This document shows, piece after piece, positions 1 through 59,185 of a stretch of 64,000 nucleotides of DNA. The notes under the pieces are model-generated. The model was not told where the DNA came from, made no database searches, and saw only the letters and a list, made by a program, of their open reading frames with translations. Numbering within the stretch: the first letter of the stretch is position 1; each line of letters begins with the position of its first letter. The position numbers and the translations under genes are program-made. This stretch comes from Candidatus Latescibacterota bacterium (GTDB taxonomy: Bacteria; Latescibacterota; UBA2968), in contig OZ241986.1 in the NCBI GenBank assembly GCA_965204375.1, forward strand, positions 896,001-960,000, written 5' to 3'.

Positions 1-17
1 TTCCGCTCCACGGCTAC

Positions 18-902
18 TCATCTCACGATCTGAGGTGACGCATAAAGATCGGGCCTGGCCTCGTTCGCTGTGAAGCAACCGGATGATCGCGCTTTCTCTA
101 TTAAATCTCTCGAGACCTCGGTCACGATCATGCCTTCCACTGGCGCGTGTTCGTCGATGAACTGGCCGTTCGGATCGATCGCGAAGGCAAGTCCCGGAAA
201 CCATGCGTTGCCGCTCTTTCCCGCCTGGTTGGCGTAGAAAATGTAGAGCGCATTGTCCACTGCCCTTGCTGGCAAGACCTGGGCGGCAAGCTGTCGATGT
301 TCGGCTGCCTGTTCGGTCTGATCGCCGTTAGGGGTGACGTTGTCAGCGCGGCCGCTTGCACCTACGGCGAGGAGGAAAAAGTCCGCGCCCTCCTGTGCGG
401 CGGTTCGGAAGATCTCCGGAAACCTCAGGTCGTAGCAGATCCCCACGCCGAAGGTCCAGCCTTGCGATGTCACGATAGGGAGTTGGCTCCCCGGTTCGAA
501 CCAGGCCCGCTCGGTTTCATTCGGGATGTGCAGTTTGGTGAAGGTCGCGAGGTAACCGCTGGGCCCTACGATGTAGGCGCTGTTGCGATAGCGTTCGCCC
601 GCTGGCTCGATGGTACCGACGACAAGGGTCATGTCGAGTTCGCTGCAGAGCGATTCGAGGAACGGAATTGATTTCTCGGCCGCAGCTTCTGCGATCCGCC
701 TGGACTCCTCGGGAGGAATGCCCGATTTGTTCATCGAGCCCGTGATGCACTCTTCGGGAAAGAGCGCAAACGTGGCACCTTGCCTGTGAGCCTCTCTCGA
801 CCACTTGGCAATTCGGTCGAGGTTGGTTGTGGGGGCGCCCATCGCGCTGTGCATGGCGACCGATGCGATACGTGTTTTTGTGTTGTTCATGGGATATGCC
901 AT
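18..902 (-). CDS. Carbon-nitrogen hydrolase (nitrilase superfamily)
   Basis: Glu-Lys-Cys triad motifs LFPEE, FTKLHIP and GICYDLRFPE; GGAGAGAGG RBS upstream of the ATG. Confidence 0.85.
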   Translation of the reverse strand: MAYPMNNTKTRIASVAMHSAMGAPTTNLDRIAKWSREAHRQGATFALFPEECITGSMNKSGIPPEESRRIAEAAAEKSIPFLESLCSELDMTLVVGTIEPAGERYRNSAYIVGPSGYLATFTKLHIPNETERAWFEPGSQLPIVTSQGWTFGVGICYDLRFPEIFRTAAQEGADFFLLAVGASGRADNVTPNGDQTEQAAEHRQLAAQVLPARAVDNALYIFYANQAGKSGNAWFPGLAFAIDPNGQFIDEHAPVEGMIVTEVSRDLIEKARSSGCFTANEARPDLYASPQIVR

Positions 903-940
903 TCGACCCTCTCTCCGATGCGTGGTTATTCATGTGTATC

Positions 941-1947: not shown

Positions 1948-3237
1948 TTAGAGCGCGGCGTTGCCCGCCTCCGTCCGCAAGCTGTGTCGGCCCTCCATAT
2001 GCGCGTGCCAATCCATGCCGATCTCCGGTCGTGATCGGGTCGGTCTGGGCAGCGCATTCGCCTGCTCCGCCACGATCGCCGGCACGCCCACGTCGCTCAG
2101 CAACTGCGCTAGATACGCCATCCGCACCAGCGTCTCGCTCTGGTAAAGACTCATGCCATCGACCCCCGCCGCGTACTGTCGCGCCGCCAGTGCATAGGCC
2201 GGTTGCGGCGCGTAAAAACCCGTATTCTTCTCTACCTGGTTTTCGATCAGCCCTTTGGATCCCACACCGCCAATGCACAGTTTGCCGTGTCGGTGTGCCA
2301 CCGCTGCGTGATAGCCGACGTGCAGGTCCAGATCCTCGCGGGTCAGAGGAAAGGGACTCAACATCAATCCGTCGACCAGATCCTCCTCGCACCAGCGATC
2401 GCTGTCCAGTCCATAGGCCAGCATCAGCCATCGCGCGTTGTCGGGCACCCGGGCGATGATTGGGCAGCGCCGATCCAATTTGCCCTCCTGGATGCGCACT
2501 GCCCGCCGCAGTTCGGTCATAAATCCGGTCAGTACGTCGGCCCGGTACTGGAACCACGTCCGGTACTGCTCGAAGTCGTCTGAGTCGATTTCGTGCGGAT
2601 CCATCCCCGTCTCCGCTATAAACGGCTCGACTAGCGCTGGATGGTATAGCAGCATCGGCATCTGCCGGCAGAAGTCGAGCACCAGCCCGTTGACGCCGAT
2701 CCTCTGACACTCGAGCAAAATATCGATCCGCTCGCGCCGCACTTCCGCCAGCGCGTAGCACAGCCGGCTGGCGTCCTCGTTGCCCGGCTTGGTCACCTCC
2801 CTGAAGGCCGGATTGTCCAGCGCGAATTTGGACGTGACCCCTATCCAGTCTGCCCGGCCATAGTGGCGGTTCATCCCCAGGCGGCCCCATAGTTGCGCCC
2901 CACGGTCGCGGCACAGCGCCAGCGCGTGCCGCAGCGGACACACCTCATTCATCACCTTGCGAACAAAGCTCCAGGATATGCCTCCGACTTGGTCACCATT
3001 TTCGCACATCCGCGTGATATGGGGCAACTCGGACCAGTAGTCCACCACCGAACGCCCCAGATTCCAAACCAGATGGTCGCAGCCCGCTTGCAGGTGCAGG
3101 TCGACGCACTCGGCCAGTGCTTTAGGCCCCGGGCACGGCTTGTCGTAGTTGGCGTAGTAGCACATCCACTCCGAGATGCCAAACACCGGTTTTTCGTTGC
3201 CGCTTGCCTCGCGCAATTCGAGTTGCTCTTGCGCCAT
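1948..3237 (-). CDS. Putative glycoside hydrolase-like TIM barrel (GHL10/DUF187-like)
   Basis: LCYALAEVRRERIDIL...GVNGLVLDFCR and WCEEDLVDGL segments resemble GHL10-like proteins; AGGAGG RBS; GC-rich. Confidence 0.5.
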   Translation of the reverse strand: MAQEQLELREASGNEKPVFGISEWMCYYANYDKPCPGPKALAECVDLHLQAGCDHLVWNLGRSVVDYWSELPHITRMCENGDQVGGISWSFVRKVMNEVCPLRHALALCRDRGAQLWGRLGMNRHYGRADWIGVTSKFALDNPAFREVTKPGNEDASRLCYALAEVRRERIDILLECQRIGVNGLVLDFCRQMPMLLYHPALVEPFIAETGMDPHEIDSDDFEQYRTWFQYRADVLTGFMTELRRAVRIQEGKLDRRCPIIARVPDNARWLMLAYGLDSDRWCEEDLVDGLMLSPFPLTREDLDLHVGYHAAVAHRHGKLCIGGVGSKGLIENQVEKNTGFYAPQPAYALAARQYAAGVDGMSLYQSETLVRMAYLAQLLSDVGVPAIVAEQANALPRPTRSRPEIGMDWHAHMEGRHSLRTEAGNAAL

Positions 3238-5786: not shown

Positions 5787-5855
5787 GCGGTGCAGAGGGT
5801 GCGCCCATCGGGGCGCGGAAGGTGGCATTGAGCGATACGTCTTCAATCTGTTTTT

Positions 5856-13639: not shown

Positions 13640-15748
13640 TTACCTCCCTTTGATCAGCACGGTGTCCATTGCCGGGACATCGATTGATCTGCCCGTCAGT
13701 TCCACGGACCTGGATACGGGTGTGAAGTTCGCAACGGCGATCACATCGCTGGTTCGGGACCGAAAGCGATAGGCTCTGACTCCGTCCTGGGCTGTTTGCA
13801 GTCTCTCCACGCCATGGCCTGTGCGGCGCGTTCCGGCACGACCCTGGCGTATGACACACGCGTAGTCACGGACGGTGCCACCGTTCACTCCGGGACGCAG
13901 GAATACGCGGTCCTGGAGTAGATTCCTCCACCGCTCAGGCGTATTTCTCTCCGAGGCATCTTCATACAGAAGTTGCTCGCCGGATGTCTCGATCCCCAGA
14001 CATCCCGCGATCTTGATCCAGGTTGATTCCGTTTCGATCACCCGTGCTCGTCCGCCGACGCCTCGTATGGTGCGCCGACTTCCTTCGAAGGAGACCGAGA
14101 CCCGGTTACCGTTCACAAAGTCGTTCATGATATAGACGCCAAATCCCTCGTTCAGGGAGAGCGCGACATCCGCGACGGTCCAGTCTATCACGAGCGAAGT
14201 TTCCCCGTCTTCGAGCGCGGCGACGGCGATAGATTGTCGAATTCGCCCGTCTGCGTATTCGATCATGCCCGTGGTCGTGAAGCCTTTCTCCGATGTGTGA
14301 TCGGTGTGGAAGAGCGGCGTGGGCTTCAGGCGCTCGCCGTTGATTTCGAAACGTCCAATGAAGGCGTCCTCGTCCGATCCCAGCGTGTCTTCTCCGCCGG
14401 CTGGCACGACCATTCCCATTACGCTGTGTGATAGGGATCGCCAGGCGAATGAGAACAGGCCCTGCTTGCTGCGGCGAACCTGTAGCCATACATAGGGATA
14501 GGCATCGGTTCCGATCTGCTCGCGTCTGAATTCCTCAACGGATATCGGCGAGATATCGGGTACGCCGGCAATCACGAGGGCGGCAAGGTGCCCCATGATG
14601 CCCGTTTCGAACTGGAAGTAGCGACCGCCAGCCGCGTGTGGCATTCGGGCGTTGAATCGGCCGTCTCCTGCGTCCCGCATTGACTCGTCCAGATATACGA
14701 GGTTCTGCCACAACATATGGCCTGCAAATCGGTCGCCGAATTCCTCGAACATGACGGCGTGTTGGTAGCTGATGTCGGGTTCGTGGTAGGTCCAGTCCTG
14801 TCCGGATGGGTAGGCCGTAAATCCGTTGTAGAGGAAGAAACGCCTGAGCACTTTCCAGGCATCGTGGACGCGGTGCAGGTAGTGGGGGGGAGGTGTCTTG
14901 CCCGTCAGTGTGAAGGCGAGGCGCCCCGTCATCAGGAGGACACCACAGCCGAGGTACCCCGGGTGGAAGGAGCCGTGGTTCTCCACGGTGAGGTCGGGGT
15001 GGGACGTTTGCGTGCAGATCCAGTCTTTCAGCGGGCGACCGTCGAAGAGCCGCGTATCGACCCGATCGAGGTCTGTGGTGAAGGTGTTGATGGCAAATAG
15101 CTTGCCTCGATACAGCCATTCGTCCGCGTGAGGGTGGTCGGGGAGGAGACAATGCGCCCAGGCGAGAAGATAGCTGTCCCACGCATTTTCCTCCTCCTTT
15201 GTGTCGTGCCAGCGGCCATCCGGGGGATCGACCCCGAGGAATCGGTCCGCTTCGAAGGCGAGTACGCGATGCACGGCTTCGAGTACGTCCGGTGCCAGTT
15301 CGTTCGCAACGTGGTTGGCTGCCATTGCGATGTCCGCGATCCAGAGGGACGATTCCCAATCGTCGCCCCATTGGCCATTCCATTCGAATGGCTCCGTTCT
15401 TCGCGGTCCGCTCAGGTGGTGTGCGCAGATCCAGCGGAGACACCGGTTTAATCGGTCGAGCAGGACGGGTTTTTCCATTCCGGCGAGTGTCGGATCGAAG
15501 AATGCACTTTGATGGAGGGCCGCGTAGCCTCGAAGTTCATCGCCCAGAGATCGGATGATCATTTCGTTGATCGGTCCGCCCGGGGGTTGAAACTCGTTCA
15601 CATCGAGGGTTCCGAAGTAGCCATGCGCGTCATCATCATCGACCCAGTACTGCTCGATGTAGGGAATGTGCCTGCACATCAGGTGAACGAGGTCGGCCTC
15701 GGATGGAAAAGTCGGTGCGTTCGTGTCGAGTGGGGGGTAGTCGATCAT
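13640..15748 (-). CDS. Hypothetical protein with helical N-part and beta-rich C-part (polysaccharide lyase-like architecture)
   Basis: Long ORF; DTKEEENAW, ENHGSFHPGY and YPSGQDW motifs; start overlaps the upstream stop (ATGA). Confidence 0.55.
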   Translation of the reverse strand: MIDYPPLDTNAPTFPSEADLVHLMCRHIPYIEQYWVDDDDAHGYFGTLDVNEFQPPGGPINEMIIRSLGDELRGYAALHQSAFFDPTLAGMEKPVLLDRLNRCLRWICAHHLSGPRRTEPFEWNGQWGDDWESSLWIADIAMAANHVANELAPDVLEAVHRVLAFEADRFLGVDPPDGRWHDTKEEENAWDSYLLAWAHCLLPDHPHADEWLYRGKLFAINTFTTDLDRVDTRLFDGRPLKDWICTQTSHPDLTVENHGSFHPGYLGCGVLLMTGRLAFTLTGKTPPPHYLHRVHDAWKVLRRFFLYNGFTAYPSGQDWTYHEPDISYQHAVMFEEFGDRFAGHMLWQNLVYLDESMRDAGDGRFNARMPHAAGGRYFQFETGIMGHLAALVIAGVPDISPISVEEFRREQIGTDAYPYVWLQVRRSKQGLFSFAWRSLSHSVMGMVVPAGGEDTLGSDEDAFIGRFEINGERLKPTPLFHTDHTSEKGFTTTGMIEYADGRIRQSIAVAALEDGETSLVIDWTVADVALSLNEGFGVYIMNDFVNGNRVSVSFEGSRRTIRGVGGRARVIETESTWIKIAGCLGIETSGEQLLYEDASERNTPERWRNLLQDRVFLRPGVNGGTVRDYACVIRQGRAGTRRTGHGVERLQTAQDGVRAYRFRSRTSDVIAVANFTPVSRSVELTGRSIDVPAMDTVLIKGR

Positions 15749-15984
15749 GCGGACGCTCCCGGCTCTACAGTTTCGTGTGGTTCGTCGCATCGGAAAACGA
15801 CGAGTTTGCCGCCGTCGATGCGGTTTTTCACGTCTCGCACGAATTCACGGGCGAGATTGGTATCGTAGAGTACCAGAGCGCCCGGTGACTGTGTGTGTGT
15901 GCGGAGTCGCTCTGATTTTTCGCTCCAGGTCGATTGAAGCGCGTCGGATGCATCTCCTTCTGCGATAAGTATGACGTATGCCAT
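15745..15984 (-). CDS. Small hypothetical protein (79 aa)
   Basis: GGGAGGG RBS before MAYVILIAEG; stop coupled to the next ATG. Confidence 0.45.
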   Translation of the reverse strand: MAYVILIAEGDASDALQSTWSEKSERLRTHTQSPGALVLYDTNLAREFVRDVKNRIDGGKLVVFRCDEPHETVEPGASA

Positions 15985-15999
15985 GAGGTCCCTCCCTTT

Positions 16000-16286
16000 T
16001 GTCGGCATGCTTCGAGTTGCGCAGGCTGATCGATGATCTCCTCGGCGATCGGATCGGGAAACCGATTCTCGGCTGTCGGTGTTCCCTCTTGCCATCGGCG
16101 TTCCGTTCTGACGAAGATATCGCTGCCCTGGTACCGGACCTCGTGGGGAACTGTCACGCGTTCGAAGATGCGGTCGGACCATGTCTTGAGCCTGTCCAGC
16201 AGATCCTTATCCATGACACCAGGTACGATGGTGTAGCTCGACTCGACCAACTCCCGCCGCTTTGTCAGCGACTGCTCTCTCGTCAT
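16000..16286 (-). pseudogene. 5' fragment of a PhyH-like dioxygenase
   Basis: RRELVESSYTIVPGVMDKDLLDRL resembles a PhyH N-terminus; the frame runs into the next gene's RBS before any HxD motif. Confidence 0.55.
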
Positions 16287-16466
16287 GTCTCAATCCTTTC
16301 GGTTATCAGGGATATTATACCTAATTATGCGAGCTTTTGTTCAAAAAATACGTCGGTTGCATGATGAATCAAAAACATGGCAGCAGGCTCGTTAAAAGTC
16401 AGTTGGTAGTCAACGCCATCGAGCGTATCTTCAATGAGCCGTCTTCGGCCATTGAGGAGGTCAACT

Positions 16467-18320
16467 ATGGTAGCGGATACAGAACTCCGCAAACAGCACC
16501 AGCGTGGTGCGATCCTTCGAGATCGTATGCGGAAGGCATTTGATATGGCGTACGACACGGACGCTGCGCTGATCGTCCGCAGGAACCCGTTCTTTCCCCG
16601 TTTCAACGGCCACACCGTCGCCCAGCAATCCCTGGACTACGCCATCCTCCTGCTTCTGTCCGATGACCGCACCTACGGGACGGACGATGCCGGTGAGGCC
16701 AACCGAATCATTCGCCGAATCCTAAATCACCAGGACCTGCGACCGAAGTCCGAGACCTTCGGCAATTTCTTCTGGATGACCCACTGGGACCGGGTCAAAG
16801 ACAAGAACGCCGTCTCCTTCCTCACGATCGGCCTGGTCTTCACGTACGTCAACTTCCAGGACAAGTTGGAGGATGACACGAAGGCTGCGCTCGAACGCGC
16901 CTTTCCAAACGTGTTGCTCGGCATCCGTGACCACAAAGTCCGATGGCAGTACACCAACATCTACTTTCTCAACCTCGGCGGCCTGGCCGGTCTTGCCCGT
17001 GTGCTGGACGATCCATCGATCCACGCCGAAGCGGTGGCCGACTTCAACACCTGGGTCGAAGGCACTTCGGAAGACGGCTTCCACGAATTCAACAGCCCGA
17101 CGTACACACCCGTCACGCTCTCAGGTATGGAAGCGGCGTGGGCGTACACGTCAGATGACGAGTTCAAAGACAGACTGCGGCGCACCATGGATTTAATCAC
17201 CTATCAGATGGCGCTCAATCTGATGCCCGGTGGATTTCTGGCGGGTGCTGCCGCAAGGGCTTACCAGGGAGATGTGCTGAATGGTTCAATCGGGGCTGCT
17301 TCGTATGCCCACATTAAATTCGGCACCCCTGCTCCGGCCGAGCCTGCGGTCCTGATGCCGAGCCTGTTCGACTACGTATCGCCGGAATCTGTTCGGTCTC
17401 TGGCGAACGAGATGGCGGATGGAGCCGAAATACTCGATCGGGGAATCTCGCTGGGTAGTCGACGAACCCACGTCATTACGCGGGCTTACGGGCTGGCATC
17501 TCAGAGTTTACAATCTGTGGGCGGCCACTCGCCTCCATCGTATATCCTGCTGGTCCGGAACAGCAAGGCCCCGAGACCCAGTGTCCCGTTCCTTCCGGAC
17601 GAATCCTTTACGCATCAGCCGTGTGCCACATTCCTGTCGCGTCAGAACGGCAGTCAGGTGATCGGCAGACTGTACTACGATCTGCAGGAGGAGCAACGAA
17701 GCAAGTTTCTGGACGATCCTACGTTCATTTGTGAACCTCGCGTCCTGTTCGGGCTGAGGGACCAGATCGAGTCCGTTCGCATCGGCAATGTGGATTGGGG
17801 CGGAAAACCCGTGAGCCTTTTGCCAGGGCAATCCGTGGCTGTTTCCTATGGAGACATCTACCTGGGTGTTGTCGTCCTGCTGATAGACTGCGACGGTCAA
17901 GCGATTCGTAGCCGTGCGATGCTGGCCTATGGCGAAGATGGTGAACTGCGCCTGCGAGTCAGACTCCATGGGGGAGAGGATGTGCAGCAGGAAGATAACC
18001 CACTCGTCGCTCTGCTCTACGTCGATGTTCAGGTTCCCGAGGAGAGACATCCGTTCGAGACATTTGCCAACCAGTTGTTGGGCTGGCAGCTTTCCGACCA
18101 GAGCGACGGAGAGACGGTCTCCTTCTTGGCCGAGCACGAAGATGGCGCAACCATCGCCTATCCCTACACAGAGGCGGATCCGGATCCGATGGGCGATGTT
18201 CTGCACCTATCGCCCGGGCTTGCGCTCCAGCCGGGAGACTTTGTCAAGCTGGTGAACGGGGAGAAGCCTTTGCTCTTCGACTCTGCACAGCAAAACCGGC
18301 TTCTTCGAGAAGGTGTATGA
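16467..18320 (+). CDS. Hypothetical protein (helical toroid-like N-terminus)
   Basis: GAGGAGG RBS before MVADTEL; GFHEFNSPTY motif; 3' end overlaps the convergent gene by 77 nt. Confidence 0.6.
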   Translation: MVADTELRKQHQRGAILRDRMRKAFDMAYDTDAALIVRRNPFFPRFNGHTVAQQSLDYAILLLLSDDRTYGTDDAGEANRIIRRILNHQDLRPKSETFGNFFWMTHWDRVKDKNAVSFLTIGLVFTYVNFQDKLEDDTKAALERAFPNVLLGIRDHKVRWQYTNIYFLNLGGLAGLARVLDDPSIHAEAVADFNTWVEGTSEDGFHEFNSPTYTPVTLSGMEAAWAYTSDDEFKDRLRRTMDLITYQMALNLMPGGFLAGAAARAYQGDVLNGSIGAASYAHIKFGTPAPAEPAVLMPSLFDYVSPESVRSLANEMADGAEILDRGISLGSRRTHVITRAYGLASQSLQSVGGHSPPSYILLVRNSKAPRPSVPFLPDESFTHQPCATFLSRQNGSQVIGRLYYDLQEEQRSKFLDDPTFICEPRVLFGLRDQIESVRIGNVDWGGKPVSLLPGQSVAVSYGDIYLGVVVLLIDCDGQAIRSRAMLAYGEDGELRLRVRLHGGEDVQQEDNPLVALLYVDVQVPEERHPFETFANQLLGWQLSDQSDGETVSFLAEHEDGATIAYPYTEADPDPMGDVLHLSPGLALQPGDFVKLVNGEKPLLFDSAQQNRLLREGV

Positions 18321-19146: not shown

Positions 19147-19182
19147 TTAATTTTTGAGGTCAGCAGCGTCTTCAGCAATCCA
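19147..19182 (-). pseudogene. Orphan 3' tail of a homolog of the PhyH gene 27247..28089
   Basis: Translates WIAEDAADLKN-stop versus WIAEDAAALKE-stop of 27247..28089; begins immediately after the sulfatase TAG. Confidence 0.75.
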
Positions 19183-20754: not shown

Positions 20755-20782
20755 AAATAAGGCTTTCTTTTGCAAATGATTT

Positions 20783-25543: not shown

Positions 25544-25571
25544 AGGTTGATCTCCTTTCGCGTTGCGGACG

Positions 25572-31664: not shown

Positions 31665-31666
31665 TC

Positions 31667-35331: not shown

Positions 35332-35369
35332 TATATTATCTTGAGTAAACGATTACTCAAGATAATATA
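35332..35369. promoter_or_regulatory. LacI/GalR-type operator palindrome (probably autoregulatory)
   Basis: TATATTATCTTGAGTAA-ACGA-TTACTCAAGATAATATA: 17-bp perfect arms, core GTAAACGATTAC, about 20 nt upstream of the LacI ATG. Confidence 0.75.
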
Positions 35370-35388
35370 TAATTCAAAGGAAAATTTG

Positions 35389-36402: not shown

Positions 36403-36492
36403 CTGAACAACCATCACAATGGCCATTCAGGAATCTATTGTGACTGGGAATCGTGTTGCGGTGGACTGTTAGGTAAAGGGGAAATTGCTATC

Positions 36493-37969: not shown

Positions 37970-38174
37970 ATGCAGATGACCCAAACGCAGAAACGGCAGT
38001 TTTTTGAAGAAGGGTATTTGATTGTACGAGGCGCGATTCCCAAATTGATGGTAGAGCAAGCACGTAAGGCGATCAATCACCATATGGGGTCGCATGTCAA
38101 CGGATGCGATGGTTGATATCTGGCGCGAGTTTGAAGGGCTTAAGGATGTCAAAGAGGAAGCGATGGCCGTTTGA
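37970..38174 (+). pseudogene. Head-plus-tail scar of a PhyH-like gene
   Basis: AGGAGG RBS then MQMTQTQKRQFFEEGYLIVRGAIP (PhyH N-terminus), shifting frame into a C-terminal-like AMVDIWREFEGLKDVKEEAMAV-stop. Confidence 0.7.
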
Positions 38175-40506: not shown

Positions 40507-40665
40507 AAGGAAAAGTTGATGAATTCTCGACGACAGGCTACGCTTTCTGACATCGCCCAGGACGTTGGTGTGAGTACCGCAACCGTATCGCGCGTGCTCG
40601 CAAATGCCCCTGGTCATCGAGTCGGTACGCAAAATGACAATCAAGGAGCAATCTATGTCCAGTAA
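40507..40665 (+). pseudogene. 5' fragment of a homolog of LacI 35389..36402
   Basis: RBS and the first ~36 codons align to 35377-35496 with almost only synonymous differences, then join the sulfatase leader. Confidence 0.88.
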
Positions 40666-44716: not shown

Positions 44717-44872
44717 ATGAAACAACGCCAATTTGTCCAACCTGCCGTGGCAAGTGGTGCCAGTCTATCCGGAGAGAACAGTGCTTTAGGAGCCGCGCCC
44801 CCGGTCAGCTCGATGATTGCTGAAGAAATCGATCTGGGAAAACCCATCCTTACGCCGTTTCCACTACGTTAG
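44717..44872 (+). pseudogene. Chimeric remnant: orphan start with a degenerate Tat-like signal
   Basis: AAGGAG RBS then MKQRQFVQPAVASGASL, running into the 39-bp repeat and the antisense of the convergent gene. Confidence 0.4.
44813..44851 (-). repeat. 39-bp internal fragment of a homolog of 50277..51746
   Basis: 38/39 match to 50340-50378, the mismatch being synonymous (GGG/GGC); abuts the PhyH stop codon. Confidence 0.88.
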
Positions 44873-45596
44873 GACGGCGGGCGGATGGGGGCGTGAGAAC
44901 GCGCTTTTGTTGCTCGGTCAGGTCTTCGTAGTCGTCGTGATTGTAGTATATTGACGCGTAGGAAACGTGGCCGGGGGTGAATTTGTAGAGTAGGGTTCTG
45001 CGTTCGTTTTCAGCAGTCCAGGGCAAGGTGCCGTGCATCGTCGCTTCTGTGAAGATGAGGGCGTCGCCTGTTTCTGCACTTGGATTGGCGAGGTAGTGAG
45101 GAATGCACTTAAAGGAGCGAACCTCTTCGGGGACGTTGAGGGCAAAATTGGATTTGTGTGAACCGGGTACGCAGCAGAATCCGCCAGAACCTGGGGGGGC
45201 GGGTGCAAGGAAGTAAACGACTACGGTCAAGCCATTGCGCATGACGCCGTCGCGATATTTGTAATAGTGCGTGCCTGCACGATGGTCCCCACCATGGAGG
45301 CCACCTTTGCGCCCGCCTTGACGCATAAAGATGCCGTAGTCGTGGTCGGCACGAAATTGGGGACCGAGGAGTTCGCTGAGGTAAGGAATCATGTTGGGGT
45401 GGTCAAACAGATTTTGGAAGGGTTTGCCCCAGAGCGAGACTCTGCGGGGAATCTTGAGTCCGTTACTCATTTCCTCCTGGTCAGCCATTTTTTGATCGGC
45501 AATTGCATTGAGTTCATCTACTTCGGCTTGAGAGAGTACATTTTTGACAACGATGTATCCTTGCAGGTCAAATATGAATTTTTCTTCGGGTGTCAT
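44850..45596 (-). CDS. PhyH-like Fe/2OG oxygenase
   Basis: DLQGYIVVKNVL, GLHGG, GGFCCVPGSHK, GDALIFTEATMHGT and RR motifs. Confidence 0.85.
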   Translation of the reverse strand: MTPEEKFIFDLQGYIVVKNVLSQAEVDELNAIADQKMADQEEMSNGLKIPRRVSLWGKPFQNLFDHPNMIPYLSELLGPQFRADHDYGIFMRQGGRKGGLHGGDHRAGTHYYKYRDGVMRNGLTVVVYFLAPAPPGSGGFCCVPGSHKSNFALNVPEEVRSFKCIPHYLANPSAETGDALIFTEATMHGTLPWTAENERRTLLYKFTPGHVSYASIYYNHDDYEDLTEQQKRVLTPPSARRPNVVETA

Positions 45597-45702
45597 GGAG
45601 AATCTCCCTTTGTTTGACAACAAACAGCATAAACGATGGCGTCACATTCGGTGCCCCATTTTTTGTAAACAAACTCCGATGTAATGTCCCAATTCAAAAC
45701 CA

Positions 45703-47247: not shown

Positions 47248-48315
47248 TTAGACCTCAGAGCCTGCAACAGTGCGAACGGCCTCGCTCCAGTCATCCCAAA
47301 GCCCCGGACCCTCTGAGCGAGGCTCTGGTGGTGGGACTTCTTGCCCGAGTTCAAGTCCATGGAGTTTCCTCACATTAGGCGGTGGCGATGGTCGTGGCCC
47401 TTTGACATAACGGCCGTTGTATGCTCTGTCATATACAGACTTTTTGTACGCATCATAAAGAATCATCTGTCGAATCTGCGGAGGGTTGCTGTAGTTCCGC
47501 GTTGCCGAGTGGAACATGCGTCCGTGCCACAAGACCACATCTCCCTCGTCACCAAAGAACTCAAAGGGTTCAATGTTGGCGAGAGCGTCCTTGAGACCTG
47601 GAGGCTGTGGCAGCACGAATGCCGCAGCGCCACTTTCTGGATGGGGTGCGTGCAGGATCGAATAGCGGGCGAGATCTACGGAATCTGGCTCTGCTTCGTA
47701 GAGCAAGCGGTGACTGCCGGGAAAAAGGGCGATGCCACCTCCACCCTGGGGAACCTGGTCAACGTATGCGCTTGCCACCAGATGCACCGGCTCGGGATCA
47801 ATGTGTGCACCGGCACGGATGGCATCCGCCAGAGCAGGTGAGTCGCTCGGACGCTCTCTCGGCAGCACGCAATACATACCGCGCAATTCCTTGCCACCCC
47901 AGACCGGCCAACCACGCAACCGACTTCCACGCGGATCTGGATCGGCCGCGGAGGAAGTTACCTCTGGTGTCACAACTTCACCTTCGCCGAGAAGTTGCTC
48001 AAACCAGGGGAATACGCGGCGTGGAAGCAAGTTGATCAGGTCCTCGTCGCCGGAGAGTTCACGCAGTCGCCAGCCGTGGTCACCAGTGCGATCATTCATG
48101 CCATCAGGCGTGCTTTGACGATCTGCCTCCGGGAGACCGTTTAGCCAGGTTTGAGGATCGTCTCGGCGCAAATGACTTGAGGTGTTTCCTGCCCACAGCC
48201 TGTCCCGCGCTGCAGCACAAAGTTTGGGGTCGAGAATATTTCGTTTAACGAGGAATCCGTTCGTAATAAATTGTTGGATATCTTCCGTGCTCAGTGGTGT
48301 CAATGCTGTGTTCAT
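47248..48315 (-). CDS. PhyH-like Fe/2OG oxygenase
   Basis: FITNGFLV, HID, GGIALFPGSH and GDVVLWHGRMFHSA motifs. Confidence 0.8.
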   Translation of the reverse strand: MNTALTPLSTEDIQQFITNGFLVKRNILDPKLCAAARDRLWAGNTSSHLRRDDPQTWLNGLPEADRQSTPDGMNDRTGDHGWRLRELSGDEDLINLLPRRVFPWFEQLLGEGEVVTPEVTSSAADPDPRGSRLRGWPVWGGKELRGMYCVLPRERPSDSPALADAIRAGAHIDPEPVHLVASAYVDQVPQGGGGIALFPGSHRLLYEAEPDSVDLARYSILHAPHPESGAAAFVLPQPPGLKDALANIEPFEFFGDEGDVVLWHGRMFHSATRNYSNPPQIRQMILYDAYKKSVYDRAYNGRYVKGPRPSPPPNVRKLHGLELGQEVPPPEPRSEGPGLWDDWSEAVRTVAGSEV

Positions 48316-50276: not shown

Positions 50277-51746
50277 TCAGCGTTTCACCTGGGTATAGGG
50301 GCTTGAAATATACTGCTTGTAGCCGTTAACCTCTCGTCCATGATTGCTGAAGAAATCGATCTGGGAAAAGCCATCCTTTAACGGTATGGTTGCAGTCCAG
50401 GCACCAGTCTTTGCATCACGTTCCATATCCATCCATTGGTCTGCGGGGATTTGCTCGTGCAAGAATGGGGCGGAACCTGCCGGAGCGCGATCATAGATCC
50501 ACCATATGCGTCCGTCTATCGGCTGAGGTCCTACATTAAAACTCACGCTGACACTTAGTTTGTCCCTAGAGATTTTATAATTTGACTTCGGAGGCTGTAG
50601 CAAGGGCTCGCCACCAAAGAAGTGATGCCAGAGGAAGGCGTCTTTATTCTGTTCGTCCTTTGCCGTAGCGACATGCGGCGTTTGTGAGTGCCCGCCACTG
50701 GGTTCGTAATAGACTGGCAACTGAGGATGATTTTGCGCGCCCCAAAGAATGTCAAATGCAACGTAGTCATGTGTTCCCGGCTGAAAAAGCATATCGACGC
50801 CGCGCTCCGTTAGCCGATCCCAATTCTCCGTAACGCACGCGCTAGACCATAAACGATCCGCAAAGGATTGCATTTCGTCCATGGATTTTCCCGCTTTCAG
50901 CGCCATTTGACCCATGCCGCCCTCAGATCCCACCATAACGCGCTGATAAACTCTCCCGCGTTGTTGATCCAGATCGATATCGCCAGCCTTGACGGCTTCA
51001 AAGAATGCTTTGTTTGCCTCTTCAGCTTTGGCGACTTCTTCCCTGTCGGCTCTTCGAGTCGGCGAAAAGTAAGCAGGCGCATGGTTGGAGCAAGTCGCGG
51101 TAAAACGCTCGTCATTTATTAAGGCGACCGCGGGCGACATGCCGTTCTTGGAGCTGCCCGAGCCGGCAACCTTGCCTTTTTCGAAATGGTCGCTCTCCGC
51201 ATACGCCGCGGTGGTTGCCCGCATTAAGGTCATCGACCAGATCCAGAGAGTCGTGTAGCGGGGATTCAGATCTTTCATAAACATGCGCCCCATTTTTTGA
51301 TCCAAGCCCCGTTTGCCCGGAATCTGCCTGAACGCCTTGACGTGCGTCTTGACGATACCAACGCCACCTGCCAGCAGTTTCGCCTGAAAGTCAGTTGGAC
51401 GCGAGTCTTCCATCAGCCCTTCATAGGGATTGGCTCCGGTAATGCTAAAGCCCTTCGCCTTGCCTTCGAGCGGAACAATCATACGCACCGGGATCCGATA
51501 ATCTTGTCCAGGCCACCATTCGGCGACATTGATTTCGATTAGCTTCTGTCGCGTCGTGCCTGTCACCTCGTCCACGTGCCAGTCCTTCAACGTCTTTATA
51601 TCCAGCGTGCTTTCGTCAAGAATCTCTTCGATATTGAACATGTCGCAGTTCATACCAGAATCCTTCTCAGAATCGGCAGCAAACGCTACGGAAATCGTAA
51701 AAGTCGCGAGAATAACCAGCGATGCCATTATTCTAATTCTATCCAT
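50277..51746 (-). CDS. Secreted alpha/beta hydrolase-like protein (PqaA-like)
   Basis: Signal peptide ending AFAA; nucleophile-elbow-like GSGSSKNG, GTHD and GGH; AAGGAG RBS. Confidence 0.5.
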   Translation of the reverse strand: MDRIRIMASLVILATFTISVAFAADSEKDSGMNCDMFNIEEILDESTLDIKTLKDWHVDEVTGTTRQKLIEINVAEWWPGQDYRIPVRMIVPLEGKAKGFSITGANPYEGLMEDSRPTDFQAKLLAGGVGIVKTHVKAFRQIPGKRGLDQKMGRMFMKDLNPRYTTLWIWSMTLMRATTAAYAESDHFEKGKVAGSGSSKNGMSPAVALINDERFTATCSNHAPAYFSPTRRADREEVAKAEEANKAFFEAVKAGDIDLDQQRGRVYQRVMVGSEGGMGQMALKAGKSMDEMQSFADRLWSSACVTENWDRLTERGVDMLFQPGTHDYVAFDILWGAQNHPQLPVYYEPSGGHSQTPHVATAKDEQNKDAFLWHHFFGGEPLLQPPKSNYKISRDKLSVSVSFNVGPQPIDGRIWWIYDRAPAGSAPFLHEQIPADQWMDMERDAKTGAWTATIPLKDGFSQIDFFSNHGREVNGYKQYISSPYTQVKR

Positions 51747-51795
51747 TGCCTTCTCCTTTGCAGATTTAGTGTGTCTCGCACGTTGGCACTGCGGG

Positions 51796-53406
51796 TCATT
51801 CCCCCGTAACATTCGGGATGAGTGCCGACAGGCCCAGATTTGTTAGCCGCTCGATTTCTTCCCGGAGTTCGTCGCCCGCCAGCGGACCCGCGTAGGGGGC
51901 CTGCTCGAAGCGACATGGAGACTCCACCAGGCGGGGATCGTCGTTCTCCCGCAGGAGACCCATGAGTTCGTTCGCCAGGTCTTTGCGGGCCTGATCGTAG
52001 TCCGGGTCTGTGGCGACATTGTTCATGTAGTGGGGATCGACCCGAAGGTCGTAGAGTTCCTCTCGAGGACGCTTACCGAAGCCGATCTCAAAGAGGGGCT
52101 GTACCTCTTCGTCGGCGCGATGGTGAATCATCCAGGCCTTGGTTGGACCCCCATCCATGTCGGAATACGCCGGGCGCGAGCTGGCCATGAGACTGTCCCA
52201 GGACGGCGCCTCCGCATTGGGGTCGTCAAGCCCTCGCGGGTCTCCCACGGGCCAACGATCAGGCTCGAAGTTGTGGATGTAGAGAAAGTCCCTGGTGCGG
52301 ATCGCACGCATCGGATAGGGCATGCCATCTCTTGCCATGACATTGTGGCGCTCTCGGCCCGTCACGACGGCCGTGCGCTCTGCTTCTACCTGTCCACTCC
52401 TATCGCTTTCGAGCACAGGTAGAAGGCTGCGAGCCGTCATGCTGTCTGGGATGTCAACGCCGGCGGCGTCGAGGAAAGTGGGTGCCAGATCCATCAGGTT
52501 GACGAAGTCATCGACGACGCGGGCGGAAGGGATGCGTTCTGGCCACCGGGCGGCCAGCGCCACTTCGCAGCCAATGTTGTAAAGGTTGCACTTGGCGCGC
52601 GGGAAGCCCGGAATGCCGTGGTCGCCGCTGACGACGATGAGTGTATTGTCCAGCTCGCCGCTGGCCTCGAGGCGCTCGATCAGGACGCCCAGACCAGCAT
52701 CTACCGCCAGACACTCACCCAGGTAATCGTTCACGTCTTCACGGATGTCGTGGACGTCGGGGAGGAAGGCCGGAAGGCGACCTTTCAGGTCGTCGGATTC
52801 CAGCCCCCATAGCGCCTTGCCAGAGCCGCGCTCCCAGGTTCGGTGAGTGTTGGTTGGACCCCACCAGTAGCAGAAAGGCTTTCCCGCGGGCCTCGCCTCC
52901 AGGAAGGCGTCGAAGTTCTGCCGCGTCTCTTCGATGAGCATTTCTTTGGCTCCGTCGATCCCGAGTTCAGAAGCCCGTTTGGTCGCGACGTGGGAGAAGC
53001 GGTTGTACAGCCTGCCAGCAGATTCGTACCGCGTACGCTCTGCGCCGTAGGGGGCGTTCATGGTCCTTCCAGGAGACCACACTTTGTACGTGTACCCGAT
53101 GTGGTAGCCATTTTCCTCGAGAATGAGGGGATAGGTCGGAATGGTCTCGTCCCACACAGCGCCCTGCAGGATGGCGCCGAGGCCCGTCTGCCAGAAGTAC
53201 TGCCCCGAGAGGATGGAACTCCGGCAGGGCGTGCAACTGGGCGCCGGGACAAAGGCGTTTCGGAAGAGCACACCTTCCTCGGCAATCCGGTCGAAATTTG
53301 GGGTGTCAATGAGTGCGTTAATCGCGTTTTCGCCCTCGAACGGACGGTATGCGCTGGCATAACGCCCCCAGTCGTCCGCAAAGGCAAAGAGTATGTTGGG
53401 GGGCAT
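51796..53406 (-). CDS. Sulfatase (N-sulfoglucosamine sulfohydrolase-like)
   Basis: FADDWG, CTPCR, GDHGIPGFPRAKCNLY, GRERH and EELYDL motifs. Confidence 0.92.
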   Translation of the reverse strand: MPPNILFAFADDWGRYASAYRPFEGENAINALIDTPNFDRIAEEGVLFRNAFVPAPSCTPCRSSILSGQYFWQTGLGAILQGAVWDETIPTYPLILEENGYHIGYTYKVWSPGRTMNAPYGAERTRYESAGRLYNRFSHVATKRASELGIDGAKEMLIEETRQNFDAFLEARPAGKPFCYWWGPTNTHRTWERGSGKALWGLESDDLKGRLPAFLPDVHDIREDVNDYLGECLAVDAGLGVLIERLEASGELDNTLIVVSGDHGIPGFPRAKCNLYNIGCEVALAARWPERIPSARVVDDFVNLMDLAPTFLDAAGVDIPDSMTARSLLPVLESDRSGQVEAERTAVVTGRERHNVMARDGMPYPMRAIRTRDFLYIHNFEPDRWPVGDPRGLDDPNAEAPSWDSLMASSRPAYSDMDGGPTKAWMIHHRADEEVQPLFEIGFGKRPREELYDLRVDPHYMNNVATDPDYDQARKDLANELMGLLRENDDPRLVESPCRFEQAPYAGPLAGDELREEIERLTNLGLSALIPNVTGE

Positions 53407-55757: not shown

Positions 55758-57185
55758 CTAAACACTCGGCAAAGGCACAGTATCTCCTGTTTCATGTTGC
55801 CACAATCGAATCTTCGCCGCCATATCGCGAATGCGATCGCGATGTTCAGGAACATCAAACAGATTGTTTTCTTCATAAGGATCTGTATTAAGGTCGAACA
55901 ACTCACACTGATCACCTGCACACAAATTCAACTTCCAGAGATCACCCGTCACCACAGACCGCCAGGGCAATGTCGCCATCAAGTTAATGCTTGGATTCCC
56001 TAAATTGCGATCGCCAATCCCATTCCACTCCATAAATGCAACGTGATCCTTCAAATCGCGCTCACCGGTGAGTGCACCAGCCAAACTTTCCCCTTCACAC
56101 TGATCTGAAACTTCAACGCCCGCCAGATCCAAAAGTGTCGGCACCAAATCCGCATGCCCAAACACACCATCGATTCGTTTCTGTTCCTCATTCAACCACG
56201 GCACACTGAGCAAAAACGGCACTCGCGCAGACTCTTCGTAAAACGTCCGTTTTTCCAGCATCGCATGATCGCCCACCATTTCCCCATGATCACTCGTGTA
56301 AGCAATAATCGTATTCTCCAGTTGCCTTGTATCTTCCAATGCCTGAATGATCCGCCCCACAGCATCATCCACAATCTTCATATTTCCGAAGTATTGCGAT
56401 CTCACTTTCCGCCATCCCAATTCCGTACTTAAATCTTCACCTGCCTCTATCTTTGTTGCATAATGCTCTGCTCGCACCCGATTAAATCGCGAATGCCCTT
56501 CAGGCTGTTTCAAAAACGTCGGGCCAACTGGCAATTCCTCAGGATCATACAATCCGTCATACGGCCCTGTATATGGAGGGTGCGGTTCAAACGTACTGCA
56601 CACCAGCAACCAGGGCTGATCGACATTTTCTCGAATAAACCGATCCGCTTCCTGCGCGACAAACGCCCCGACCTGTTGTTCCGCTGGCAAACGTGCGCGA
56701 TCTCCTGCAGAAAATTGTTTCAAGTCCGGTGCCAAATGCGAGGGTGGTTCAACGCCCTGTGCCACCAACCACTCATAGTGGGAACTCATCGGCGCATCTT
56801 GAATCGTATTCAAATGCCGCAAATTATCCTGAATACTGATCCACTCATCAAACCCATGTTGGCGAACGGTATCGTTGCCCAAATGCCATTTGCCCATATA
56901 TGCTTTGCGATATGTATCTGGCATCATTTCCGCAATCGACTTTGTATCTTCCCGTAGATGAATCCCATTCACCACACATCCGTGCGAATGAGGGTACAGT
57001 CCAGACATCAACGTACCCCGCGACGGCGTACACACAGCCTGACCAACATACGTATTCTCAAAAACAAAAGACCGCTCCGAAAGCGCATTCAAATGCGGCG
57101 ATTGAATCCAATCATTGCCGTAACACGACATGGTATCTGTGCGTTGCTGATCTGTGAACACAAAAAGGATATTCGGTTGATTCAT
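55758..57185 (-). CDS. Sulfatase
   Basis: TDQQR, CTPSR, MGKWHLG, EPHPPY and SDHGE motifs. Confidence 0.93.
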   Translation of the reverse strand: MNQPNILFVFTDQQRTDTMSCYGNDWIQSPHLNALSERSFVFENTYVGQAVCTPSRGTLMSGLYPHSHGCVVNGIHLREDTKSIAEMMPDTYRKAYMGKWHLGNDTVRQHGFDEWISIQDNLRHLNTIQDAPMSSHYEWLVAQGVEPPSHLAPDLKQFSAGDRARLPAEQQVGAFVAQEADRFIRENVDQPWLLVCSTFEPHPPYTGPYDGLYDPEELPVGPTFLKQPEGHSRFNRVRAEHYATKIEAGEDLSTELGWRKVRSQYFGNMKIVDDAVGRIIQALEDTRQLENTIIAYTSDHGEMVGDHAMLEKRTFYEESARVPFLLSVPWLNEEQKRIDGVFGHADLVPTLLDLAGVEVSDQCEGESLAGALTGERDLKDHVAFMEWNGIGDRNLGNPSINLMATLPWRSVVTGDLWKLNLCAGDQCELFDLNTDPYEENNLFDVPEHRDRIRDMAAKIRLWQHETGDTVPLPSV

Positions 57186-57187
57186 AT

Positions 57188-59185
57188 CTATTCCTCAAAC
57201 CCAGAGGACAGTTCAATTCTCTTCATCACCCGCTCCAATACCCACACCCTGACGATGCCATCTCGCTGCCCACCAAGCCCGCTTGTGTAATTGTTCTTTT
57301 TGAGCTGCGTATTGTGTTCTGGCCCGCACATCTCCTGTTTGTTTATGGCCTGCTCCAGGGCGGAAATAAGCGATGCCATAGGCTGCAATTCTTCGCGGCT
57401 ACGGTATGACAGATAAGCGCCGGCCCGTAGCCGCGCCCAGAGGATATCGCTCGCCAGCGCCCGTTCAAAAGCAGGCAGAGCCAGGGCGCCTTCGCCTGCC
57501 CGCACCAGATAGTCTCCGGCGGCCAGGCTGACGCTGATTGAGGGATCGTCAAGGAGGGGGGAGAGCCGCTCGGTCATCGCGCGTTCCACACCAAGCGAGC
57601 AAAGGCCGGTAACAGCCCAGAAACGCACGGCGCTGTCGGGATCACCAAGTCGTTTTACGAGTTCTTCCTTTGCTTCTTCGCCCATGCGCGCCAGGTCCGC
57701 TGTTTCCAGGATCCGCTCATAATTATCACAGTGAGTACCGACTGCGTGGCTGATGCCGTTGTACTGCTCGGCTCGCGCGGCAATCTCCGGTTCATCGATC
57801 AGCCCCAGATCGCGGGTCTCGATCATCCAGCCAAACAGCTTCTGTCGCAGTTCCTTTTTGACGTCGCTGAAAGCGGGATCTTCTGCCAGGTTATGCACCT
57901 GTTCAGGATCCTTTTCGATGTCGTATAACTCTTCGGCCGGTTTGTGATCCTGCCAGATATGAAACTGCTGGTAATGCTCAGGTAGCCCGTCCTGTTTGAT
58001 CATGACCGGTGGACCGAGCATCAGAAACACGCCGTCGGGGTCGTGGACCTTCTGTTTGCCCGGCAGGCAAGAGGTCTCCCAGAAGGCTCGCTCCGGCGTT
58101 CCCTCTTCTGGGACGGGCGCGAAGAACCCGCCGTCTGGATAGAACGAAGCATAAGGCTGGTGGGGGAGGAAGTTACGCATGTAACGGTATTTTTTGGTGC
58201 GGATCGTGCGGATCACCTCCGGGTTGTTGTCCAGCCGATCTCTGGCACTGCAGACGAACTCTCTCGGTTCATCTCTGTTGGGACCGCACAGGTTTCGACT
58301 CTGTATATGATCGGCGAGCGGAATGCCTGCCAGCTGCAGGGTCGTCGCACACAGGTCCATGTGCAAGACGGGTTCATCAATCGCGGTGCCGGGGTCTGCC
58401 GGGGATAGGTGCCGGTACTTCTCCGGGAATCGCATAATCAGCGGAATACTCAATCCGTCGTCGTATGCATGGATCTTGCCCCGGGGATAACCCGTGCCGT
58501 GGTCTCCCCAATAGACCACAATAGTGTCTTCACTGTGCCCCTGCTCTTCAAGCTGGTTCAGGATCTCCCCGACCTGCTTATCGACATTTGTAAGGGCATC
58601 GTAGAAAAGTGCCATCCGTTCCCTGAACAGGGGCGTGTCGGGAACAAAGCTCGGAACCGGCACATCATTCGGATCGTGCAACTCGTCGTCGCTCAAGAGC
58701 GCGGAACGCGCTTTCCGTGCATCCTCGGGCGTCAGTTTGAATACGCTGGCGTGGGAACTGCCCAGTCTGTAATACATGAAAAACGGCTTGTCTTCAGGGC
58801 GATTCTCCCAAAAATCTTCAGAATTGTAATACTGTTCACGCTCATCTTTGGAGACGTATAGATTGATGTCATTGTCCGGCTGCGTGCAGGCATAACCGGC
58901 GTTTGTCAGCATTGTGTTTAACAGTTCAACCCCTGCGGGGCGGATGACCGCGCTACGGTGATGATGCGTGCCCAGCGTGGTCGGATGCATGCCGGTATAG
59001 ATGCCCGTGCGCGATGGTGAGCAGATTGGGCCAGCGGTGAACGCGTTGGTGTAGCGCACACCTTCTGCCGATAGGCGGTCAATATTCGGGGTATGCGCGT
59101 ATTGATCGCCGTAGCAGCCGTAGTTCCAGGCGCTGGAGTCGTGGTTGCTGATCCAGAGGAAATTGGGTCTGTCTTGTTTTTCCAT
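57188..59185 (-). CDS. Sulfatase with C-terminal HEAT-like repeats
   Basis: CSPSR, GDHG..YPRGK and ARDR motifs; C-terminal DPDSAVRFWAV and DDPSISVSLAA repeats. Confidence 0.88.
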   Translation of the reverse strand: MEKQDRPNFLWISNHDSSAWNYGCYGDQYAHTPNIDRLSAEGVRYTNAFTAGPICSPSRTGIYTGMHPTTLGTHHHRSAVIRPAGVELLNTMLTNAGYACTQPDNDINLYVSKDEREQYYNSEDFWENRPEDKPFFMYYRLGSSHASVFKLTPEDARKARSALLSDDELHDPNDVPVPSFVPDTPLFRERMALFYDALTNVDKQVGEILNQLEEQGHSEDTIVVYWGDHGTGYPRGKIHAYDDGLSIPLIMRFPEKYRHLSPADPGTAIDEPVLHMDLCATTLQLAGIPLADHIQSRNLCGPNRDEPREFVCSARDRLDNNPEVIRTIRTKKYRYMRNFLPHQPYASFYPDGGFFAPVPEEGTPERAFWETSCLPGKQKVHDPDGVFLMLGPPVMIKQDGLPEHYQQFHIWQDHKPAEELYDIEKDPEQVHNLAEDPAFSDVKKELRQKLFGWMIETRDLGLIDEPEIAARAEQYNGISHAVGTHCDNYERILETADLARMGEEAKEELVKRLGDPDSAVRFWAVTGLCSLGVERAMTERLSPLLDDPSISVSLAAGDYLVRAGEGALALPAFERALASDILWARLRAGAYLSYRSREELQPMASLISALEQAINKQEMCGPEHNTQLKKNNYTSGLGGQRDGIVRVWVLERVMKRIELSSGFEE

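Follow-up and report, generated by a model that had tools for sequence, protein, structure and literature searches.

An array of catabolic genes in a Latescibacterota chromosome that is probably reshuffled by recombination and deletion without a dedicated recombinase

Background

Integrons and integrase-less attC arrays carry co-directional single-gene cassettes with short spacers, which turn over and are reordered between relatives; the attC site itself is an imperfect inverted repeat with a length of at least about 55 nt and a GTTRRRY core. Tandem duplication-random loss is a model used for animal mitochondrial gene order. Here we describe a row of catabolic genes, called the array in the following, on a 64,000-nt stretch of the chromosome of an uncultured marine Candidatus Latescibacterota bacterium (assembly GCA_965204375.1, contig OZ241986.1, positions 896,001 to 960,000). 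This whole stretch is referred to as the window, and positions are window positions (w) unless preceded by C1, the one complete 6.34-Mb contig of the source genome G000 (window = G000:C1:896001-960000); other G numbers denote relatives. The array shares with integrons the co-directional single-gene units, the short spacers and the reordering between relatives but has no integron integrase or attC sites, and its cassette borders vary by context. With tandem duplication-random loss it has in common that orientation is kept, that same-strand remnants of lost copies lie in the spacers and that duplicated intermediates occur; it differs in being located on a bacterial chromosome, in consisting of dispensable paralogous catabolic units and in that the duplicates are often diverged alleles, which were probably brought in by recombination between lineages. 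A narrow literature search found the duplication-loss model for mitochondria only and no bacterial use of it.

According to the parts of the Alteromonas study that we draw on (PMC4898812), additive flexible genomic islands occupy a locus shared across the genus, carry cassettes whose content and order are independent of phylogeny and which are more alike between species than the core genome, and lie mostly at tRNA, tmRNA or integron sites; the cassettes comprise several genes, and illegitimate recombination is invoked for them. Measured against this partial account, the array is similar in that the same locus is found in all relatives with variable content and order, and in that synonymous divergence (dS) in the island is below that of control loci (with p = 0.057 for G016). 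It differs in having no tRNA within 124 kb and no integrase, in its single-gene granularity on one strand and in its dense gene stumps. Two of the three features of additive islands are found in the array, and the third, the hotspot, is absent. A second comparison is offered by the lpl cluster of tandem paralogues in Staphylococcus aureus, for which the sections considered (Tsuru and Kobayashi 2008, PMC2568036) describe strain-to-strain reshuffling by general recombination without a mobile element, with crossovers in the conserved centre of the open reading frame (ORF) and a unit consisting of 3' end, spacer and 5' end. The array would likewise be reshuffled in tandem by general recombination without a mobile element, but as a mirror image of what these sections report for lpl: its unit is the whole ORF, its borders lie in the spacers and its families are unrelated. 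For homology-facilitated illegitimate recombination (HFIR), the excerpted source quotes a microhomology of 3-10 nt at the illegitimate join (PMC6382021). We rate the array as a variant of a flexible genomic island that is integron-like in behaviour, yet neither integrase nor attC sites were found in the window. A limited literature search, partly of excerpts, returned no description of shuffled sulfatase arrays in this bacterial group.

Gene order and gene content

The comparison of gene order covered ten genomes, namely G000 and nine complete genomes of the same genus, 80 kb surrounding the locus being used of the latter. All nine relatives carry the locus, each with different content and order; an identical gene order was found in 0 of 45 pairs, which show 2-21 breakpoints each. 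An earlier note on the window, drawn up from its sequence alone, had proposed a gene-shuffling array without recognisable recombinase and a comparison of gene order across relatives. The proposal is borne out: even close relatives never share an identical order, all ten orders differ, and the window contains no match to the recombinase families searched, no reverse transcriptase and no tRNA.

Orientation is kept during this reshuffling, as none of 208 matches is inverted and the shared families show a single strand difference over the 45 pairs. Any single relative retains 8-16 of the 44 adjacencies of G000, and the 45 families present in at least five genomes have a median of 3 and a maximum of 7 distinct downstream neighbours; module divergence is unrelated to the number of neighbours (rho 0.006). 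Parts of 24600-35400 are contained at high identity in 20 of 20 same-genus genomes, in pieces breaking at gene borders. The order in G004, for example, is [w12790-15983][w5853-11668][w11681-12872], behind which lie stumps of w13967-14028 and w15924-16002. Among five arbitrary 20-kb control loci, three (L047, L048, L082) are collinear at about 89-94% identity, L083 has an inversion, and L084 (G000:C1:200001-220000) is an island of type I restriction-modification, Schlafen/AlbA_2 and STAND NTPase genes which are reordered in G008 and G010. Because three of the five controls are collinear while one is inverted and one is a reordered defence island, plasticity is local but not unique to the array locus.

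The part of the array that lies in the window is:

1..59185, mostly minus strand: window portion of the plastic catabolic array, delimited from Pfam matches, strand counts and order comparison

In G000 the plastic zone reaches from about C1:876k to 1006k, and the array, whose core is formed by the window, measures at least 100 kb. The minus strand holds 35 of the 44 genes called in the window. Pfam counts for the window comprise 14 sulfatases, 6 PhyH-type dioxygenases and 3 aldo-keto reductases, besides an enolase-superfamily enzyme, GH10, a LacI regulator, an RND efflux pump and one AAA_14/DUF4143 ATPase; polysaccharide-lyase-fold proteins are a further component. We think that the array genes are functionally independent catabolic genes. 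At the co-directional junctions, 22 of 38 spacers are shorter than 55 nt, and the step in GC content between adjacent window genes is 0.053 versus 0.033 genome-wide (98.8th percentile). Promoter and terminator scans of the window stayed at chance level (20 terminator-like sites against 20.4 expected, none of them in the minus-strand spacers of 17000-36000).

Scars in the spacers

Gene remnants were sought by self-blastn of the window and their parents in the relatives, and junction probes carried 40-nt flanks. The earlier note had listed five remnants of genes that are intact elsewhere in the window; four of these match at 90-99% (E 1e-11 to 6e-124), whereas the one at 19147 has a weak counterpart within the window (19116-19184 versus 27216-27284, 71%, E 0.08). 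The alignments are 27086-27193 with 31730-31837 (99.1%, 108 nt, E 2e-48), 27193-27245 with 33059-33111 (92.5%, 53 nt), 33174-33246 with 47226-47298 (98.6%, 73 nt), 33236-33519 with 48093-48376 (94.4%, 284 nt, E 6e-124), 40507-40619 with 35377-35489 (90.3%, 113 nt), 44810-44851 with 50337-50378 (95.2%, 42 nt) and 25569-25594 with 31709-31734 (96%, 26 nt). Every remnant lies on the same strand as its intact counterpart. When the whole 6.34-Mb genome was searched, the remnants 27086/27193, 33174/33236, 40507 and 44810 matched window genes only, at a threshold too high for the weak 19116 pair and for 25569-25594 with its 26 nt. Orphan fragments had also been reported at 16000, 36493, 37970 and 44717; parents in relatives were found for three of them, and none for 44717. 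The scars, together with intact counterparts and one sulfatase module, are:

5810..5846, minus strand: scar, nt 68-104 of the 2682-nt gene x30 (100% over 37 nt), which is intact in G002 and G015 with the same neighbours
15791..16433, minus strand: composite spacer, 5' 232 nt of the 843-nt gene x31 fused to other remnants
19147..19182, minus strand: scar, last 36 nt of a PhyH gene, 860-nt deletion with a 2-nt overlap (CT)
25569..25594, minus strand: spacer copy (equal to 31709-31734) located directly at the stop codon of sulfatase 25594..27066, also found in G002 together with its flanks
25594..27066, minus strand: sulfatase module, occurring in 9 of the 10 genomes next to 6 distinct downstream genes, flanked by a 5-nt direct repeat
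27086..27245, minus strand: scar, second copy of sulfatase 31790..33097, 1221-nt deletion with a 1-nt overlap
31790..33097, minus strand: intact sulfatase, counterpart of 27086-27245, 99.0-99.2% identity in five other species
33174..33519, minus strand: scar, allele of a PhyH-like gene, 802-nt deletion with 3 nt (CCA)
36406..36472, plus strand: scar, 3'-terminal 67 nt of x84 of G002, a gene of 1017 nt; 100% identical with flanks in G002
37970..38174, plus strand: scar, nt 1-130 and 673-747 of the 747-nt gene x49, 542-nt deletion without microhomology
40507..40619, plus strand: scar of a LacI-family gene (nt 37-149) with 90% identity to 35341..36402
44717..44849, plus strand: start of a 44-aa ORF, orphan, no parent found
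44810..44851, minus strand: nt 1437-1476 of gene 50277..51812, a fragment with its join at the stop codon of PhyH 44850..45623; found in G015 too when probed with flanks
47248..48315, minus strand: intact PhyH-like copy, 5.4-5.6% diverged from scar 33174-33519

Some of these scars are shared with relatives and others are not. With its flanks, 5810..5846 is absent from the other genomes probed, and 33174..33519, which retains 22 nt downstream, the last 51 nt and the first 223 nt of the gene and 61 nt upstream, occurs in G000 only, the flanked probe being negative in other genomes. The scar 27086..27245 is also present in G002; what remains of this second copy are 48 nt from the end and 39 nt from the beginning of the gene, with 64 nt of spacer on the downstream side and 14 nt on the upstream side. 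For the 36 nt at 19147-19182, identity is 97.2% to the 3' end of a PhyH gene which G016 has in intact form between the same neighbours; the 860-nt deletion ends precisely at the stop codon of sulfatase 19183..20811, and the junction is found in G004, G008 and G015 as well. As to the composite spacer, x31 is intact in G010, G015 and G016, while 16377-16432 is an internal piece of the 1893-nt gene x38 whose flanked probe was found in G004, G016, G018 and G010. On the plus strand, 36406..36472 begins 3 nt past the stop codon of LacI 35341..36402, and 40507..40619 accompanies sulfatase 40604..42064 in G002, G004 and G015. G002 carries intact x49 plus the same scar as 37970..38174, with identity at 204 of 205 nt. 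Caution is needed in annotating such arrays, where scars can make up short ORFs or long N-terminal extensions: ORF 15828..16286 is assembled out of scars, and ORF 33325..33666 (plus strand), opposite 33174..33519, is probably spurious. For ORF 36493..36825 no parent was found.

Origin of the scars

The earlier note had also stated that scars and intact copies differ mostly at synonymous or conservative positions, and that a random distribution over codon positions would speak against its array hypothesis. We found a third-position bias instead, 17 of 20 differences falling on third codon positions (p = 3e-6; 2, 1 and 9 at the three positions in one of the two longest scars and 0, 0 and 8 in the other). 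Therefore both scar and intact copy diverged as working genes. The further claim that the scars came from alleles of related lineages, and not from local duplication, holds in part. Besides the third-position bias it is supported by the scar 33174-33519, which has 98-99% identity to the intact gene at this place in G002, G004 and G015, as compared with 94% to the copy in G000, and which to judge from these identities descends from that allele. Among 32 scar pieces from the ten genomes, the median identity to the genome's own intact copy is 94.3%; most pieces show 86-97%, 6 are at least 99% identical, and for 11 the allele of another genome is a closer match than the own copy. Local duplication is, however, seen too: G002 has one gene in two copies with 99.1% identity, 18 kb apart, and its intact x49 adjoins its own 99% scar; the sources of the scars are mixed. 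Spacer gene fragments number 20-41 per genome, some of them being ORF-start artefacts.

Divergence and exchange between lineages

Median dS in the island is 0.07-0.16 compared with 0.18-0.33 in control loci (five genomes, two control loci with 25-28 genes each; Mann-Whitney p 1e-9 to 0.057, the latter, borderline value being that of G016). Against G004, most genes from w28121 to w44850 have a dS of 0.004-0.08 where the control median is 0.33, and change points in the mismatches lie both within genes and at gene borders. The segment 34169-38099 shares 98.9-100% identity with G002, where control loci of this pair show 89-96%, and is the most recent shared segment seen. The GC content at third codon positions is weakly related to dS in the island (rho 0.18-0.37, with p = 0.04 in G004 only). 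Lower island dS and the change points point to exchange between lineages, which would include transfer between species. One module illustrates how adjacent genes differ:

55758..57185, minus strand: sulfatase module, 0.7-2.6% divergence among ten species, 7 different downstream neighbours

Its neighbour across a 2-nt spacer, 57188..59185, is 4.1-12.2% diverged, the change point falling at this spacer, and the distance matrices of these adjacent genes correlate poorly (rho 0.24).

Joins and borders

The joins had been ascribed to microhomologies of a few nucleotides and, at 19183, 25594 and 44850, placed on stop codons. Both statements are confirmed, with measured overlaps of 0, 1, 2, 3 and 5 nt and all three joins abutting stop codons. 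Across 43 distinct clean indels, microhomology amounts to 0-2 nt in 32 and to at least 3 nt in 11 (2.2 expected); the repeats flanking the indels measure 0-16 nt without a fixed duplication length. Many break points fall inside genes, as the scars document, and the borders of module 25594..27066 vary by context, lying 7, 21-22, 91 or 185 nt past the stop codon. An insertion of this module into the coding region of AAA_14, accompanied by a target duplication of 5 nt, was considered and dropped, because its flanks correspond to the upstream spacer of that gene and the repeat also fits a microhomology deletion. A statistic on the distance from fragments to the upstream stop codon (25 of 114 within 3 nt) was likewise discarded, as the distance is necessarily zero for any fragment that is cut off at the edge of a called ORF.

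Search for mobility machinery

The absence of an integrase, transposase or attC array, asserted in the earlier note, stands for the window, with rve and DDE_Tnp_1 as the transposase families covered. The tyrosine-recombinase family PF00589 has two matches in G000, at C1:3366173 and C1:4257832 (2.4 and 3.3 Mb off), and none in C1:896001-960000. The window contains no rve or DDE_Tnp_1 match, other transposase families not having been searched, and the nearest ones are at C1:1001471 (41 kb to the right) and C1:785781. No tRNA or tmRNA was found in the 124 kb of C1:876001-1000000, and Rfam gave 0 matches. Attempts to fold attC-like structures gave z < -2 for one of 21 spacers of at least 40 nt, and GTTRRRY occurs once. 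Because 22 of 38 spacers are shorter than 55 nt, an attC site is not possible at each junction.

An integron or attC origin was therefore rejected (no nearby integrase, no Rfam match, spacers too short, no hairpin excess), as was, for rve and DDE_Tnp_1, an insertion sequence or transposon, given that there is no match in the window and that the flanking repeats described above do not amount to a fixed target duplication. A retroelement was rejected because the two reverse transcriptases of G000 lie far from the window, and Ku-type end joining because G000, which is 96% complete, has no Ku match.

Soundness of the assembly

Since G000 and its relatives are metagenome-assembled, the pattern might be an assembly or binning chimera of co-occurring strains. 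Other strains are indeed present in sample X17, where a fraction of 0.28 of the contigs continue differently. Yet G000 is a single 6.34-Mb contig, independent contigs from samples X15 and X17 reproduce 25000-44999 at 100% identity with an even depth of 17-24, and X15, the source-like sample, shows no alternative path or variant joint. The repeated 87-nt piece of 27086..27245 has double depth in the independent contigs. These are de Bruijn contigs that break at repeats, so the two copies of the 108-nt repeat are unphased in them and they do not replace long reads. Moreover, of the 44 adjacencies of G000, 36 are found again in one or more other assemblies, and so are 8 of the 10 scars that were probed with 40-nt flanks. 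In two further sequencing runs, which come from different studies and are labelled as sponge and coral metagenomes, there are relatives at 95-99% with alternative joints at the same module borders (28112/29090, 25602/27083, 38099/38100). The junctions are real and the assembly is sound; a chimeric origin is extremely improbable.

Evolution of the array

We consider it reasonably probable that the array evolves by duplication and loss, through homologous recombination together with illegitimate deletion and without a dedicated recombinase. Homologous recombination would take place between copies of the same module at different positions, either within the chromosome or with DNA of a differently ordered relative, and would result in deletions, segmental duplications and the import of diverged alleles; since all modules face in one direction, only duplications and deletions would arise, and never inversions. 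Illegitimate deletions would then trim the surplus copies, with a microhomology of 0-2 nt in most cases and of 3-16 nt in some. The deletions that survive would be those sparing the stop codon and ribosome-binding region of the neighbours, leaving gene stumps in the spacers, and repeated rounds would permute the order gene by gene. The G000 order of 24695-33097, for instance, could be derived from one six-gene tandem duplication and three deletions, the footprints of which would be exactly the scars observed.

Several points weigh against this scenario. In 6 of 6 genomes, the step in divergence from 55758..57185 to 57188..59185 occurs within 0-75 nt of their common border, which is tighter than homologous recombination tracts predict. 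Joins fall exactly on stop codons at 19183, 25594, 44850 and 36403-36406, where one random deletion would rarely end, and between genomes with different neighbours homology ends a median of 6 nt past the stop codon, in pairs that are non-independent. Repeated trimming, selection and old illegitimate junctions may account for both the stop-codon joins and the border jumps. In addition, shared junctions do not represent independent events because the nine relatives are kin, and the dS contrast is borderline for G016 and uses two control loci.

The earlier note had suggested the import of single genes from related lineages by HFIR, with one homologous anchor and one microhomology join, and the overwriting of resident genes. 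HFIR would give one conserved side and one novel microhomology junction and would import the alleles of relatives. This agrees with scars that come from alleles intact at the same place in other species, with the third-position bias expected of working alleles, and with sulfatase 55758..57185, which has the same upstream neighbour in 9 genomes and 7 downstream ones, as a one-sided anchor gives. DNA uptake with RecA-dependent integration, which HFIR involves, is represented by a ComEC homologue, but this says little because 10 of 14 control genomes have ComEC. The microhomologies speak both ways: 9 of the 43 distinct clean indels fall in the 3-10 nt range of the excerpted source, but 32 have 0-2 nt. 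Furthermore, there are 99% duplicates within the locus, a block duplication yields the G000 order without import, and no junction can be demonstrated to be the end of an import instead of a deletion. We regard this proposal, including the overwriting, as unlikely. Still less likely is purely vertical tandem duplication and random loss in each lineage, with low divergence reflecting constraint instead of exchange between species. It would explain why orientation is always kept, why stumps lie where duplication-loss predicts them, why G002 holds an intermediate and, through gene-specific rates, why per-gene identity is near-uniform across genomes. It is at odds with the reduction of dS as well as of nonsynonymous divergence (dN), to 4-80 times below control medians in the gene run versus G004, with the poorly correlated distance matrices of 55758 and 57188, with the identity of most scars to their own copy of 86-97% instead of about 100%, and with scars that can be nearest to another species' allele.

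An unrecognised dedicated system, integron-like but built from other parts, might move cassettes the size of an ORF that are bounded by stop codons and ribosome-binding sites. Borders a few nt from stop codons, divergence jumps at gene borders, the alternative joints at the same borders in the unrelated metagenome runs and the three family-less proteins outside the fold prediction (1948..3237, 36833..37921, 50277..51812) would suit such a system. The borders of one and the same module (25594..27066) differ by context, however, many break points lie inside genes, neither a motif, a hairpin excess, a GTTRRRY core nor a fixed duplication length was found, the window contains no match to the recombinase families searched and source-like sample X15 no variant joints, so that a system of this kind is very improbable. 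The narrower idea that ORF-sized cassettes were swept genus-wide by a mechanism which cuts at the stop codon or ribosome-binding site is also improbable, if slightly less so; its clearest candidate is sulfatase 55758..57185, with at most 2.6% divergence genus-wide beside a neighbour of about 9% and a jump at the border. If true, the array would be a functional analogue of a super-integron for polysaccharide catabolism, either recombinase-less or with a new recombinase.

If, on the other hand, duplication-loss by homologous recombination and illegitimate deletion is correct, a one-strand, operon-like row of catabolic genes would act as a cassette array by general recombination and deletion alone. 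Its content and order would turn over one gene at a time, alleles would cross species faster than the core diverges, and the spacers would keep this history as datable stumps. The many complete genomes would then make the array a natural system in which to measure how fast genes are duplicated, imported and deleted in uncultured symbiont-type bacteria, and would allow testing how far selection alone sharpens recombination borders to gene ends.

Proteins without family assignment and the AAA_14 gene

The two largest proteins without family, 13640..15790 (minus strand) and 16434..18320 (plus strand), have no Pfam, NCBIfam, PHROGs or PDB sequence match. Their predicted folds are confident (predicted local distance difference test 85-87) and combine an alpha-toroid with a beta-sandwich, for which Foldseek matches polysaccharide lyases (E 9e-11 and 2e-9), namely xanthan, hyaluronate, chondroitin, heparin and alginate lyases. 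Given these lyase-like folds, both proteins are predicted to be enzymes and not hidden recombinases. Homologues of both families are annotated as 'hypothetical proteins' in metagenome-assembled genomes of Latescibacteria, Chloroflexi, Armatimonadota and Gemmatimonadota. Among ten proteins compared with NCBIfam, one far-sub-threshold match was obtained for the AAA_14 ORF (E 0.0014, 18.9 bits where the cut-off is 168), the remaining nine unknown proteins giving none; a PHROGs search of nine unknown window proteins gave zero matches, and PDB sequence and profile searches of the unknown window proteins yielded nothing significant.

30516..31666, minus strand: AAA_14/DUF4143 ATPase (Pfam), the only non-catabolic gene of its stretch

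Ten AAA_14-type genes are dispersed over G000. The longest ORF of the window gene probably overshoots by 127 nt, homology in the relatives beginning only at the ATG at 31666, and its true start is thus probably 31666 and not 31793. The stretch upstream of 31666 is a spacer that is also found beside other genes and contains a short hairpin-like inverted repeat. With the start at 31666, the pieces 27086-27149 and 25569-25594 are therefore most likely copies of the spacer upstream of the AAA_14 gene and not of its 5' end.

Further observations

The sulfatase Pfam domain begins at residues 4-26 in all window sulfatases except 57188..59185 (for example in 25594-27066, 29101-30447, 31790-33097 and 53449-54798). 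Because such domain starts leave little room for a signal peptide, the window sulfatases may be cytoplasmic.

Several repeats were noticed elsewhere in G000. An element of about 150 nt with 7-nt tandem repeats at both ends lies in control locus L047 (L047:1303-1454; G000:C1:3001303-3001454) and has about 140 copies in G000 and many in relatives, clustered at about 4.4-4.6 Mb and with none near the array; as a driver of the reshuffling it was rejected, there being no copy in C1:860k-1010k. Exact repeats of 35-42 nt with regular spacing (e.g. 146 nt) at G000:C1:6329561-6333871 and C1:5214169-5216447 resemble CRISPR arrays, and tandem repeat units of about 1 kb with 86-92% identity at G000:C1:2336173-2351325 probably encode a giant repeat protein. 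Finally, short same-strand fragment matches (66-225 nt, 87-94%) within tens of kb of each other at G000:C1:5209840-5252991 and C1:4307646-4316067 may mark other scarred arrays.

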